A stretch of 64,000 nucleotides of DNA from Nannocystis pusilla (lineage in GTDB: Bacteria > Myxococcota_A > Polyangia > Nannocystales > Nannocystaceae): positions 209,694 to 273,693 of the forward strand of contig NZ_JAIRAU010000002.1 of NCBI RefSeq assembly GCF_020073745.1, written 5' to 3'. Of this stretch, positions 13,226 to 63,672 are shown in pieces. Under the pieces are notes generated by a model that was not told the origin of the DNA, made no database searches, and saw only the letters and a program-made list of their open reading frames with translations. The position numbers were made by a program, and so were the translations under genes. How positions within the stretch are numbered: the stretch's first letter is position 1; each line of letters starts with the position of its first letter.

Positions 13226-13295
13226 CAGGGCAGGTGCCGAGGTGCATGTGCCAGGGGACATGCCTCGAAGGGCATGTCCCCCAGGACAGCTCAAC
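13226..13295. repeat. Tandem array (about 5-6 units, 14-bp register) of the GGRCA|TGYCC palindromic repeat family
   Basis: CATG-centred palindromes at 13246.5, 13260.5 and 13274.5, with degenerate units at 13232.5 and 13288.5, spaced exactly 14 bp. Lies between the adenosyltransferase start and the DUF4388 gene end. Confidence 0.7.
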
Positions 13296-14205
13296 GCCCC
13301 TTGAGCGCGGCGATCAGGCGCGGCTGGAGCTCGGGGATGATGACGAACACCCAGCCGAGCTGCGCCTTGACGCCGTCGACGAGGATCGCCCAGCGGTGGC
13401 GCTCGTCGAGCTCGATGACGAAGATCAGGAGGCCGTTGTCGCCCTCGATGATGAACTTGTTGATGCCCTTGGCGAGGGCGTCTTCGGAGCGGGTCAGCGC
13501 GGTGTGCAGCTGCTCGGACAGGCGGTTGAACATGGCGCACGCCTTGGGCGCCGAGTTGATCCCCGCGAGCGACATGCCCGAGGCCTTGCTGATGATGTCG
13601 ACGCTGATGAGGCCGCCCATGAGGTGGTCGTCGAGCTCCTCGAGGATGGCCTTCACGACCTTCAGGTCCATGTCTGACAGCTCCTTGTCGCGCGATGCAA
13701 GGTTGGGCGCAGCCGGGAATACCGGGGACGGCGTCGTGATCGGCAGCGGCGGAAGTGGCGGCACGGTGACCGGCGCAGCGCGCTGCGGCTTCTCGATCAC
13801 GGGCACCGGCGGAGGGGAGGGCGGGTTGGCGGCGCGCGGCGGAGGATCGTTGCGCGGCGGTGGTTCGTTGCGCGGCGGCGGCTCGTTGCGCGAGGCCTCG
13901 TCGCGCTGGCGGGCGCGGTCCATCAACAGCGCGACGATCGACGTGTGTCGCACCGTCTGCGGGCAGTTCTCGGGCAACTGCGAAGACGAGACGCTACCCT
14001 CGCGCCAGTCGAGGATGGTGTTGACGGCGTCGTCACCCTGGGCCGCGCCGGTCTCGGCGTGGACGAGGTTGCCGCCCTGGAAGAACATCGCGCCGACGCC
14101 GTGCGGCGACTCGACGGACAGCTTGATCGACATGCGCGACGTCTGCGCAAGTTGCAGGATGTCCCAAAGTTCAAAGCCACCGATCTGGGCGATCGTGGTT
14201 GCCAT
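13291..14205 (-). CDS. DUF4388 domain / roadblock-LC7 (MglB-like) domain protein with Pro-rich PPPRNE repeat linker
   Basis: N-terminal FELWDILQLAQTSRMSIKLSV...GNLVHAETG resembles DUF4388. The C-terminal ~110 aa look like a roadblock/LC7 fold. ATG at 14205 with SD ggggagg. Confidence 0.7.
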   Translation of the reverse strand: MATTIAQIGGFELWDILQLAQTSRMSIKLSVESPHGVGAMFFQGGNLVHAETGAAQGDDAVNTILDWREGSVSSSQLPENCPQTVRHTSIVALLMDRARQRDEASRNEPPPRNEPPPRNDPPPRAANPPSPPPVPVIEKPQRAAPVTVPPLPPLPITTPSPVFPAAPNLASRDKELSDMDLKVVKAILEELDDHLMGGLISVDIISKASGMSLAGINSAPKACAMFNRLSEQLHTALTRSEDALAKGINKFIIEGDNGLLIFVIELDERHRWAILVDGVKAQLGWVFVIIPELQPRLIAALKGR

Positions 14206-14589
14206 TACTTGCCTCCCCGTGGCCCGCATGGGCCGCGACCGCGATCGCGGGGACAGCTCCCCACGAGATTGGTCTGGGTACAATACCGCGCCTGCTCATA
14301 TCTTTGGGACAGGTTCTTCACGCGAGCCTGCGGCGACGCCATCTCAGCCCAGGTCCGTGGGGCCGTAACGGCGTCGCGTGTGTCCCGTCTCACTCGGATT
14401 ACGAGGTTTGGCGTCCGAACTAGCATCCGCGCTCGCCGGGCAAGCCTGCGGTAAAGGCTTTTCGCGGGCCACGCTAACACCTGCTTCGGAAAAAAGCTAC
14501 GTTGGAGACACTCGACGAGCCGCGCGCTGAGTGCGCAAGCGGAACGAGTCTTTCGGGACCTGGCCGACAAGTCCTGCTCGCGAGCGGCA

Positions 14590-16020
14590 TCAGCGAAGCA
14601 GGGCGTACGCCGACGTCACCAGCAAATTCGCAAGCGCCAGGGGTATCGCGGCCCGCTCGAGGAAGAAGAGAGCGGCGCGCGCACGCGAGCCGCAGGCCGT
14701 CGCGTGCAGTCGTTGCACGAGCCATGCGACGGCAGCGATCTTCGCCGCCAGCACGACTGCGCCGATGAACAGCGCGAGGCCGTGGACGGCGCCGGCGAGG
14801 GGGAACATCGGCAATCCGGCACCCCCGAGGAAGCAGGCGACGAACGCCGCCGCGAAGCCCAGTCGCTCGAGTCGTCCCGCCGGCGGCGCGGCCGCGACCG
14901 CGACCGCCACCGCGGCGGCGATCGGTTGCACGACGAGACTCCAGCTAGGGAAGATCGCGGCGTCGTGGAAGAGACCCACAGCTTGCTCGCCCACGAGTCG
15001 CCGTGGATCGAGGGTCCCAAAGGCCAGCAGGGGACCGGCGAATGCGGCCGCAAGGGCGAGGTCGCGCGACGCGAGCCGCCGTGCCAGCGGCGTGGTGTCG
15101 GTGAGACGACCGAGAGACGCGATCACCAGCGCGACGAGATAGACGAGCCAGCCCTCGCCGACGGCGACGAGTGCGAGCGGGACGCCGCCGCGACCTGCGG
15201 CGCACTGCTCGACGTCGGCAGCGGAAAGCGATCGGCCGATCGCGTCGGGGCAGAAACCGGGGCCGAACGGCAGCAGCGCGAACGCGGCGATCAGCGGTAA
15301 CCACGCCGGCCAGGCCAGCGGCGGTTTGAGCCGTCGCGTCCCGAGCCACGCCAGCGCGGCGAGCGCCAGCAGCACCGCCGTGCGGACCCCGGCGCGCAGC
15401 AGATCGCCTGTCGGGTCGGGCTGCGCGTAGCGAAGCTCGACGCTCTGCGGCGCCGCGCCCGCCGCAAAGAGGAGGCGCGCGCCGCCCGACCGCGGCGCGC
15501 CGCCTCGCGTGAAGTGGTCGTGGTCGACCCGGAGGCGCAGGCTCACGGCTCCCCCGGCAGCGATCTCCCGCGGGTACTCGCGATCCTCGATCGCGAAGGC
15601 GCTCCAGTCCGGGGTGCGCGAGTCGAAACGGATCGCCGTCAGCGGCGCCGTCGTGTCGCCATGGTTCACGAGGCGCAGCTCGAGCCGCCCGGCCGCGGGC
15701 GTGAACACCAGCGTCGACGGCTCGGCGCGCACGCCGGTCGGTGGAGCGGCGCAGCCGACGAGCGCGAGCATCCCGAGCGCGAGGCAGAGGCTTGCGGCGC
15801 GGCGCGAGCTCGACCGCGGTTGCGAGAGCGTGGCGACGCTCGGGCTCGCAAGCGGTAGCGAGTGGGCGCCGACTTGCGAGAGTATTGCAACGCTCGGGCT
15901 CGCAAGCAGTGGCGCGCCGGCGAAGGACTGCACCCCGACCGGGCATGCGTGCGAGCCCGCGACAGGCTCGGGACCGGCGGCCTCCGGGGCCGCAGGGGAG
16001 GCGACGACCGCGAGGGTCAT
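14590..16020 (-). CDS. Polytopic membrane protein with internal lipobox-like LVGC segment
   Basis: Many TM helices over 476 aa. Start at ATG 16020 is supported by an ATGA overlap with the upstream small gene. The N-terminal region contains a 33-bp imperfect tandem duplication. Confidence 0.55.
   Translation of the reverse strand: MTLAVVASPAAPEAAGPEPVAGSHACPVGVQSFAGAPLLASPSVAILSQVGAHSLPLASPSVATLSQPRSSSRRAASLCLALGMLALVGCAAPPTGVRAEPSTLVFTPAAGRLELRLVNHGDTTAPLTAIRFDSRTPDWSAFAIEDREYPREIAAGGAVSLRLRVDHDHFTRGGAPRSGGARLLFAAGAAPQSVELRYAQPDPTGDLLRAGVRTAVLLALAALAWLGTRRLKPPLAWPAWLPLIAAFALLPFGPGFCPDAIGRSLSAADVEQCAAGRGGVPLALVAVGEGWLVYLVALVIASLGRLTDTTPLARRLASRDLALAAAFAGPLLAFGTLDPRRLVGEQAVGLFHDAAIFPSWSLVVQPIAAAVAVAVAAAPPAGRLERLGFAAAFVACFLGGAGLPMFPLAGAVHGLALFIGAVVLAAKIAAVAWLVQRLHATACGSRARAALFFLERAAIPLALANLLVTSAYALLR
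15822..15920. repeat. Tandem imperfect duplication of a 33-bp hairpin-forming unit (ttgcgagag...gctcgcaagc) within the 5' region of the membrane protein gene
   Basis: ttgcgagagcgtggcgacgctcgggctcgcaagcgg and ttgcgagagtattgcaacgctcgggctcgcaagcag, each with internal inverted arms ttgcgag/ctcgcaa. Translated they give the duplicated peptide ASPSVA(I/T)LSQ. Confidence 0.55.
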
Positions 16021-62623: not shown

Positions 62624-62747
62624 CGCTGTCTCCTTCGTGGCGCGGTCGCCGCGCCGTGCCGCGCGAGTATAACCCCGTCGGCCCGGGTCGCCATCAAACC
62701 AAGGGAGCGCGCGGGGCCCGGCGCGGGTCGGCGACCTGACTCAAAGG

Positions 62748-63533
62748 TCAGGAACCGGAGAAGCGAGCGGCGCGGCGCTCGATGAACGACTGCATGCCCT
62801 CACGCGCGTCGTCCGAGCCCATGATCGCGCGCACCTCGTCCATCATGGTGGCGAGGGCGGCCTCGGGCCCGCGCTCGAGGGTTGTGCGGGCGGTCGCGAG
62901 GGTGGCGCGCACCCCGAGCGGGGCCTGGGCGGCGATCGTGGCCGCGATCTCGGCGGCGCGCTCGACCTGCTTGCCGGGCTCGACGACCTCCTGCACGAGG
63001 CCGATCCGCAGCGCCTCGCCGGCGTCGAACATGTCGCCGGTGAGGAGCCAGCGCATCGCGTTGCCCCACCCGGCGACCTGCGGCAGCCGCAGGGTCGCGC
63101 CGCCGAACGGGAAGATCCCGCGCTTGATCTCGATCTGGCCGAAGCGGGCGTCGCCGGCGGCGATCCGGACGTCGGCGGCGAGCAACAGCTCGATGCCGAG
63201 GGTCAGGCAGTAGCCCTGCACGGCGAGCAGGAGCGGCTTCTGGCGCACGCGCCCGTAGAGGCCGAGCGGATCGACGGCGCCGTCGGGGAACAGGCGCTCG
63301 CCGCGGGCGACGGCGGGGCCGACCTCGGCGAGATCGAGGCCGGCGGTGAAGTGCTCGCCGTGGGCGAACAGGACGGCGCAGCGCAGGTTCGGGTCGTCCT
63401 CGTAGTCTGTGACGGCCTCGGCCAGCTGGCGCAGCATGGCGAGGTCGAAGGCGTTGCGCTTGGCGGCGCGGTCGAGGCCGATCATGCGCACGTGGCCGAG
63501 CGTCTGGGTCGAGATCCGGCGGTCGGTGGACAT
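62748..63533 (-). CDS. Enoyl-CoA hydratase/isomerase family protein
   Basis: Crotonase motifs GLDRAAKRNAF, FTAGLDL and GYCLTLGIELLLAADVRIAAGDARFG. ATG at 63533; the upstream 66 codons of the track ORF span a repeat array. Confidence 0.8.
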   Translation of the reverse strand: MSTDRRISTQTLGHVRMIGLDRAAKRNAFDLAMLRQLAEAVTDYEDDPNLRCAVLFAHGEHFTAGLDLAEVGPAVARGERLFPDGAVDPLGLYGRVRQKPLLLAVQGYCLTLGIELLLAADVRIAAGDARFGQIEIKRGIFPFGGATLRLPQVAGWGNAMRWLLTGDMFDAGEALRIGLVQEVVEPGKQVERAAEIAATIAAQAPLGVRATLATARTTLERGPEAALATMMDEVRAIMGSDDAREGMQSFIERRAARFSGS

Positions 63534-63672
63534 GGGCGCGAGTCTACACCGGAGCGTCGCGGGGGCGAGGCGGGCGGCCGACTGGGGGATGACTGAAAGG
63601 ACATGGCGAAAGGGACATGCTGCGCCGGGCGGCGGAGACGACGGGTCGAGATCCGGCGTTGGTTGCGGTAAG

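Follow-up and report, generated by a model that had tools for sequence, protein, structure and literature searches.

We analyzed a 64-kb stretch of DNA (64,000 nucleotides, hereafter the window) from Nannocystis pusilla (contig NZ_JAIRAU010000002.1, positions 209,694 to 273,693) and found that it carries a genuine, high-copy family of palindromic repeats whose cores, GGRCA|TGYCC, stand in 14-bp phase. Most probably, although we hold this with moderate confidence, the repeats are lineage-specific extragenic palindromes of Nannocystis that form stem-loops at the 3′ ends of genes and resemble the repetitive extragenic palindromes (REP) and bacterial interspersed mosaic elements (BIME). The location of the arrays, the structure of their ends, a weak covariation and a strand asymmetry favour such a hairpin-forming element over a register for protein binding.

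The reality of the family in the window was assessed with shuffles that preserve the dinucleotide composition. The decamer GGRCATGYCC was found seven times vs. 0.36 expected, and the pattern TGYCC-N4-GGRCA 11 times vs. 0.33 expected. When the distances between all pairs of CATG were counted, 14, 28, 42 and 56 bp gave 22, 13, 11 and 3 pairs, respectively, and each of the remaining distances only 0–4. The original prediction, made from the sequence of the window, spoke of at least 20 loci with 2–6 copies each. We recognized 13 convincing arrays bearing at least two CATG in phase, together with about 10 more loci represented by a single core or a solitary unit, so that 20 loci are reached only if single units are counted as well (about 23 repeat loci per 64 kb). 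Two further CATG pairs (39081–39108, and 59495–59522 within a kinase gene) are weak and chance-like. The phased centres listed earlier are all present, and those at 54177.5–54219.5, 36658.5–36700.5, 13246.5–13274.5 and 46609.5–46637.5 are exact. Three other series are in phase but not perfect: 42009.5–42065.5 includes one degenerate unit (CTATG at 42051.5), the first centre of 43818.5–43860.5 is a GGTG half-site instead of CATG, and 62260.5–62330.5 has degenerate units at 62274.5 (AATG) and 62302.5 (CAGG).

The anatomy of the unit was studied by pooling the window with 99 related loci, which together comprise 856 kb of Nannocystis DNA and contain 232 arrays; the related loci were ascertained by a three-core match and cover a small portion of each genome. 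In this set, CATG pairs at 14, 28, 42, 56, 70 and 84 bp number 563, 366, 255, 113, 51 and 28, showing that the periodicity persists beyond the window. The spacing is near-strict, with 6 pairs at 13 bp and 25 at 15 bp. Neither the decamer nor the 14-bp spacing stays at the level expected from composition, both being enriched in the window and the spacing also in the 856 kb. The logo over the 232 arrays reads nRGGRCATGYCCYn, with near-random spacers. Of the outermost “unit” at either end of an array, the half that faces inward is all that remains (TGYCC at the left end, GGRCA at the right), and farther out the composition is that of the background. Because the array ends keep only the inward half-site, the unit is centred on the spacer and not on CATG. 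The building block is a 14-bp inverted repeat, TGYCC-N4-GGRCA, placed head-to-tail without a gap, where CA|TG is the junction between units; this tiling produces the GGRCA|TGYCC cores with a CATG every 14 bp. Thus, the earlier description of a family of CATG-centred palindromes is right as to dispersed and phased palindromes, but the unit is better centred on the spacer.

A single unit spans 14–16 bp and a two-core hairpin 24–34 bp. The 856 kb contain 307 perfect units, of which 129 are internal, 96 terminal and 82 solitary, the latter vs. about four expected by chance. Spacers share on average 1.24 of 4 bases between units of one array and 1.07 of 4 between arrays, and identical spacers make up 5% and 1%, respectively, in agreement with the claim that cores and spacing are conserved while the bases between them diverge. 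No enrichment of stable tetraloop sequences was found among the spacers.

The position of the arrays relative to genes was determined by using our own script based on the phase of GC3 (G + C at third codon positions), which was checked on known genes and is consistent with public gene calls. Convergent junctions hold 103 arrays, co-directional (tandem) junctions 77 and divergent junctions 10, and 22 arrays lie inside open reading frames (ORFs); for the strong arrays, i.e., those with at least three cores, the numbers are 88, 49, 2 and 8. The background comprises 138 convergent, 368 co-directional and 127 divergent junctions. Divergent promoters are depleted of arrays about 14-fold, and 95% of the strong arrays are outside ORFs. 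The expectation that most arrays sit at gene boundaries was therefore borne out for convergent and co-directional junctions but not for divergent promoters. At convergent junctions, the median distance from the stop codon to the array is 7 nt; at co-directional junctions, about 36 of the 77 arrays start between −10 and +14 nt from the upstream stop codon. The first few bases after the stop are preferred even in long intergenic regions. The genes flanking the arrays are functionally unrelated, and only kinases, histidine kinases, dehydrogenases and sigma factors recur nearby. The genome from which the window comes seems to lack canonical intrinsic (U-tract) terminators: a search for a hairpin followed by a T-tract in 20 kb of the window (36001–56000) yielded four sites vs. 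4.0 in shuffles, i.e., the chance level.

Since the elements lie between convergent or co-directional genes just behind the stop codons, transcription would place them in the 3′ ends of mRNAs. Every core is self-complementary, so that any two neighbouring cores can pair. According to folding predictions, two neighbouring cores would form a stem of 10 bp closed by a loop of 4 nt, and nested hairpins of about −25 to −55 kcal/mol would result from longer arrays; most arrays of the window are predicted to fold as long hairpins of −25 to −57 kcal/mol, with z from −3.5 to −8. By analogy with E. coli REP, such stem-loops may terminate or delay transcription, protect the mRNA that precedes them and shield adjacent genes from one another. 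In the DNA itself, the palindromes would be prone to slippage by whole units and to palindrome-templated conversion, which would account for the indels of 14 and 28 bp and for the hypervariability of the spacers described below.

Several tests support pairing between cores. In 73 non-orthologous 42-nt segments, 66.7% of the cells were paired vs. 63.6% after shuffling, and the covariation score was 0.194 vs. 0.151; none of 500 shuffles reached either value. In pair counts, a model of three local hairpins scores about the same as one long hairpin. Spacers two units apart (i and i+2) complement each other in 12.5% of cases vs. 7.3% in controls. Among non-ascertained arrays, the distribution of core numbers has peaks at 2 and 4, as expected if paired cores form hairpins. 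When arrays at co-directional junctions were oriented by transcription, wobble-compatible T..G combinations outnumbered C..A (49 vs. 19, p = 3.6e-4), G and T were enriched at the stem positions of the sense strand, with no skew in the spacers, and the sense RNA was more stable than the antisense by 2.7 kcal/mol on average (p = 0.03). A search of the whole window against Rfam gave no match at gathering thresholds and no more than chance-level matches around 54 kb.

Other observations weigh against a hairpin-forming 3′-end element. The arrays at 46.6 kb and 43.8 kb fold no better than shuffled sequences, the covariation excess is small although significant, and C-A mismatches at ±3 are common. 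After removal of orthologous loci, the G/U asymmetry weakens to p = 0.036, and the convergent control shows the opposite direction (p = 0.058), so we take this RNA-level signal as suggestive. The 14-bp spacing is near-strict, although RNA loops should tolerate changes in length, and it is the identity of CATG, and not its complementarity alone, that is near-invariant. Solitary units have stems of only 5–6 bp, 36 of the 82 are inside ORFs, and the complementarity of their flanks is not above control. Nor do the elements bear the tag at the stem foot that is found in the GTAG/CGTC REP superfamilies (PMC3733652), their outer flank being background. No REP-associated tyrosine transposase was seen, and no transposase-like family recurred among the 731 genes called in the 856 kb, drawn from genomes of about 12 Mb.

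The taxonomic range was examined by a scan of one genome per species in 185,579 species, with three good cores in phase as the criterion. The family is centred on Nannocystis: among the matches listed (at least 120 loci), about 95 of 120 are from Nannocystis or Nannocystaceae. The other listed matches are perfect 14-bp minisatellites, actinobacterial regions adjacent to dioxygenase genes, and palindromes from two assemblies of Rhodobacteraceae; unrelated bacteria, too, sporadically have perfect 14-bp repeats that contain the same core. A scan of viral contigs gave zero matches. The two Rhodobacteraceae assemblies carry two loci each (L036:3874-3909, L086:762-820, L041:481-516 and L053:1292-1327) with TAGACATGTCA-type palindromes at the 14-bp phase, one of them a perfect 50-bp palindrome, and these may represent an independent dispersed family or another type of operator.

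Within Nannocystis, the comparison of relatives showed arrays at orthologous positions in at least five species: the same junctions are occupied in the window, N. radixulma, N. bainbridge, N. pusilla and N. punicea, and also in a more distant relative (L121). The window is closest to N. radixulma (98% identity of the M3 peptidase). In syntenic metagenome contigs the arrays fade with distance, with orthologous arrays at 72% protein identity, one hairpin at 63% and none at 60%. Between orthologues, the copy number changes by whole units (14- or 28-bp indels), from 3 to about 8 cores at a single junction. CATG is identical in 0.96–1.0 of orthologous positions, positions ±4 and ±5 in 0.79–0.87 and position ±3 in 0.48–0.90, values that may be inflated because the aligner can match any core to any core. 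Spacers reach 0.42–0.66, compared to 0.81–0.92 for codon position 3 and 0.87–0.92 for other intergenic DNA; in the closest pairs, spacer identity is 0.42 vs. 0.92 at codon position 3. Despite the aligner caveat, the spacers clearly turn over faster than the neutral classes. In the array behind the M3 peptidase gene, all CATG of the window and N. radixulma are in register while about half of the spacer bases differ, and a perfect long palindrome arose in the window lineage; such a change points to palindrome-templated conversion in addition to slippage.

Two further loci carry tandem copies. At the orthologous convergent junction of the relative at 72% protein identity (L121:6231-6290), three near-identical units bear a non-palindromic variant core (GGCCATGAAC), which is evidence of recent local tandem duplication. 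In Nannocystis sp. RBIL2 (L003:1276-1650), a tandem repeat of about 97 bp contains one solitary unit (ccTGTCCCGAAGGACAgaagactccctc) per copy. The original prediction ascribed the pattern to selection on a register rather than to minisatellite expansion. Cores and spacing are indeed kept; at the same time, the 14- and 28-bp indels between orthologues and the near-identical adjacent units in some arrays indicate that minisatellite-type dynamics are part of the picture.

These dynamics bring forward the alternative that the repeats have no cellular function, being hairpin-prone 14-bp minisatellites or remnants of mobile hairpins (produced by slippage, template switching or an HUH-type enzyme) that are tolerated behind 3′ ends. 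We regard this as rather unlikely. The unit-step indels, the near-identical adjacent units (including those of L121), the spacers that outpace codon position 3, the emergence of a perfect palindrome in the window lineage and the sporadic perfect repeats with the same core in unrelated bacteria all agree with it, and tolerance alone would yield the same depletion at promoters and within genes. It explains less well why arrays persist at the same junctions across species, even in the relative at 72% protein identity, and why they prefer the position right after the stop even in long intergenic regions. Cores and phase remain intact over near-random spacers, which requires selection or a homogenizing mechanism, and only 5% of adjacent spacers are identical. 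The 731 called genes, where no transposase-like gene recurs near the arrays, also speak against remnants of a mobile element.

A protein reading double-stranded DNA offers the main rival explanation, where the arrays would be tiled sites for a winged-helix dimer of the PadR type or another dimeric reader of a 5-4-5 inverted repeat. Each two adjacent CATG would be spanned by one dimer, and the resulting filament on the DNA behind genes might serve as a roadblock, an insulator or a nucleoid organizer; we find this unlikely. Its starting point is the B. subtilis PadR dimer, which reads CNTGNA-N6-TNCANG, i.e., two CATG exactly 14 bp apart, contacting C, T and G; in the crystal, where the DNA is pseudo-continuous, one dimer follows another at 14-bp intervals (PMC5728393). 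This operator geometry, CATG-N10-CATG (the padC operator in B. subtilis), is exactly that of the Nannocystis arrays (PMC5728393), and the two share the CATG half-site cores, the free spacer and the 14-bp tiling, in which a CATG can be common to two successive sites. The earlier argument that 14 bp, being off the helical repeat, speaks against a classical dimeric operator therefore fails (PMC5728393). The same scan that found the Nannocystis loci also returned three actinobacterial loci with three tiled TGACATGTCA sites at 14-bp spacing. In two of them (L083:2440-2530 and L085:4590-4680) the sites lie between a divergent PadR-like gene and a carotenoid-cleavage dioxygenase gene, Pfam having confirmed PadR for L085 only; in the third (L057:7600-7660) they lie beside a carotenoid-cleavage dioxygenase gene, and the PadR side is beyond the end of the locus. 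These are probably a conserved PadR operator array. Protein binding also fits the most conserved position being CATG, the near-strict spacing, the free spacer and the weakness of compensatory change, and it accounts for CATG invariance and strict spacing better than RNA folding does.

Nevertheless, the Nannocystis arrays are scarce at promoters, with 2 of the 147 strong ones at divergent junctions, and hug stop codons, while PadR operators lie in promoters beside the regulator gene, one to three per locus. Extrapolated from the density in the window, the Nannocystis elements probably number in the thousands genome-wide, behind functionally incoherent genes. The outer cytosine of the PadR half-site is indispensable (PMC5728393), but terminal units and all 82 solitary units lack it (CA/TG beyond the half-site), and at positions ±4, the equivalents of A11/T18, about 80% of units have C/G and not A/T. 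When two actinobacterial PadR proteins were compared by phmmer with every ORF in the 856 kb of Nannocystis loci, no homologue was revealed. A binding site would not be expected to show covariation, which is small but significant here, nor a G/U bias on the sense strand or peaks at even numbers of cores. The variants at internal degenerate cores (CAGG/CCTG and AATG/CATT) did not favour RNA wobble over PadR contacts or vice versa. It is quite improbable that the arrays are coated in vivo by a PadR-like dimer or another 5-4-5 reader, with the 14-bp tiling of the PadR crystal forming a genome-wide, sequence-specified protein barrier at gene ends; if true, operator-like sites would here make up a bacterial roadblock-terminator or insulator system.

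That the pattern reflects nothing but chance or the composition of a GC-rich genome is practically inconceivable: some two-CATG pairs in the window are at the chance level (about one is expected per 64 kb), but the enrichment of the decamer and of the unit over shuffles, a periodicity reaching 84 bp and the preservation of arrays at orthologous positions refute this.

The features found in the window are collected in Table 1.

Table 1. Repeat arrays and single units in the window. The strand is given as “.” for every feature; + and − in the last column refer to the strands of the window.
Coordinates	Strand	Feature	Context and remarks
7752..7765	.	Solitary unit TGTCCTGAGGGACA	Overlaps stop codon of + ORF 6326..7759; followed by a weak 3-unit run, 7849-7890
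11325..11373	.	Degenerate array, CATG/CAGG/CATG in phase	4 nt past stop of + ORF 10992..11321; convergent junction
13205..13295	.	Array, 3 CATG (13246.5, 13260.5, 13274.5) and degenerate flanking units	Between stop of − ORF 13291..14295 (DUF4388) and start of cobalamin adenosyltransferase gene; sense RNA fold with 14-bp stem, −36.8 kcal/mol
16088..16129	.	Three-unit run, one CATG (CAGG + CATG)	Junction of co-directional − genes
26160..26215	.	Two-core hairpin CTCCGGGACATGNCC-N4-GGCCATGTCCCGGAG	Kept in N. pusilla and N. bainbridge; loop alone varies
27800..27827	.	Two-unit element, one CATG (TGTCTCTACAGACATGTCCCCACAGGCA)	
31141..31154	.	Solitary unit TGTCCCTCAGGACA	Convergent intergenic region
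36645..36714	.	Four-core array	Begins at TGA stop of M3 peptidase gene (− strand); spacers 1 and 3 complement each other, which makes the array a near-perfect long palindrome; predicted RNA energy −34 kcal/mol for the − strand and −45 kcal/mol for the + strand, z −7 to −8
41996..42086	.	Array, 5 phased cores (one degenerate)	Fills 77-bp gap between convergent dienelactone hydrolase and PepSY_TM genes; PepSY_TM stop codon within last CATGA; all six related genomes have it, with 3 to about 8 cores
43812..43874	.	Three-core array	Immediately upstream of start of − ORF 43407..43853; degenerate in N. punicea, present in more distant relative L121
46589..46658	.	Three-core array	Junction of two co-directional − genes, upstream of AAA ATPase gene; two more units in N. 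punicea (28-bp indel)
47324..47337	.	Solitary unit TGTCCGAAGGGACA	
49326..49367	.	Weak two-core element	29 nt past stop of + ORF 48754..49296; overlaps GC-rich terminator-like hairpin
54164..54233	.	Four-core array	Fills gap between convergent adenylate cyclase (+) and HAD (−) genes; extends from 8 nt past one stop codon up to the other; + RNA fold −46.1 kcal/mol (z −4.1)
55289..55316	.	Single perfect core GGACATGTCC and half-sites	ATG of the core (55301-55303) is probably the start codon of − gene 54668..55303
55428..55469	.	Two-core hairpin	Begins at stop codon of − ORF 55467..57689; RNA −25.2 kcal/mol, z −5.2
62097..62110	.	Solitary unit TGTCCCGCGGGACA	6 nt past stop of epimerase gene 60979..62091
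62170..62211	.	Two-core hairpin	650-bp convergent intergenic region
62247..62344	.	Six-position array (4 CATG + 2 degenerate)	Same 650-bp convergent region as 62170..62211; predicted RNA fold of −56 to −57 kcal/mol for both strands
63590..63631	.	Two-core element	Upstream of enoyl-CoA hydratase gene; rare case of divergent junction

Some further observations concern the surroundings of these features. The repeat CATG provides an ATG on both strands in an ATG-poor genome (for instance, at 55298-55307, 13245-13248, 43845-43848 and 55454-55457), so ORF finders are prone to place gene starts, or extensions of genes, within arrays. The 650-bp convergent intergenic region is unusually long and contains, beside its two arrays and solitary unit, GC-rich 6/12/24-bp tandem repeats at 62410-62531. 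At 30497-30755, a 93-bp tandem repeat of 2.5 copies lies on the strand of a Cys/Asp-rich coding region.

The original prediction did not recognize the repeats as a described myxobacterial element, and we likewise found no description of tiled Nannocystis repeats in the literature searched (general searches, the N. exedens genome note, the GTAG/CGTC REP survey and the RepRanger paper); the genus-wide family is apparently undescribed. The core GGRCATGYCC coincides with the vertebrate p53 half-site RRRCATGYYY, and searches of the literature with the decamers therefore give only papers on p53 response elements; we take this as an irrelevant coincidence. To our knowledge, few terminators are recognizable in the 12-Mb, 72% GC genomes of myxobacteria, and we know very little of how their transcription units end. 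A repeat that occurs every 3–5 kb or so behind stop codons, in register across species, is a candidate for ending transcription units. The family is also a clean natural case for the evolution of palindromic repeats, where cores and phase are kept and spacers change faster than synonymous sites, and the exact geometry of the PadR operator makes a role in protein binding directly testable. In practical terms, the arrays provide gene finders with false ATG starts and are potential variable-number typing markers for Nannocystis.

When compared to known systems, the arrays resemble bidirectional intrinsic terminators as symmetric GC-rich hairpins between convergent stops that could be used both ways. 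Unlike them, they are multi-unit, reuse one sequence genome-wide and lack flanking A/U tracts: the hairpin of an intrinsic terminator is present, the U tract is not (T in the flanks is at most 0.17). With mycobacterial interspersed repetitive units-variable number tandem repeats (MIRU-VNTR) and intergenic minisatellites they share tandem intercistronic units of variable copy number that overlap stop and start codons. MIRU units, however, are 46–101 bp long and not palindromic, whereas the Nannocystis unit is a 14-bp palindrome with spacers that differ between copies. As for miniature inverted-repeat transposable elements, the length of the arrays varies in unit steps and their outer flanks are not conserved.

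The closest resemblance is to REP and BIME, as had been proposed. REP in the broad sense are short imperfect palindromes of 20–40 bp, extragenic and present in high copy, and the 232 arrays in 856 kb correspond to this description. Both kinds of elements are GC-rich short imperfect palindromes that occur in hundreds to thousands of copies, single or clustered, and are lineage specific. Both are situated at 3′ ends and convergent junctions, often a few bases from the stop, and not at divergent promoters, as the strong arrays show (88 convergent, 49 co-directional and 2 divergent). Nearly half of E. coli REPs adjoin a termination codon (PMC12306157), and the placement of the Nannocystis arrays near stop codons matches this distribution. 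Thus, the 3′-end location, copy number and extragenic placement support REP/BIME-like behaviour. Unlike REP, the Nannocystis unit is only 14 bp long with a 5-bp arm, and its linker-free tiling in strict register fuses neighbours into CATG cores. In BIME, REPs alternate in orientation and are joined by linker motifs, whereas the Nannocystis units are symmetric and abutting, with near-random 4-nt spacers. Devoid of the tags that define the known REP superfamilies, the family is REP-like in its behaviour and unusual in its tiled 14-bp architecture.

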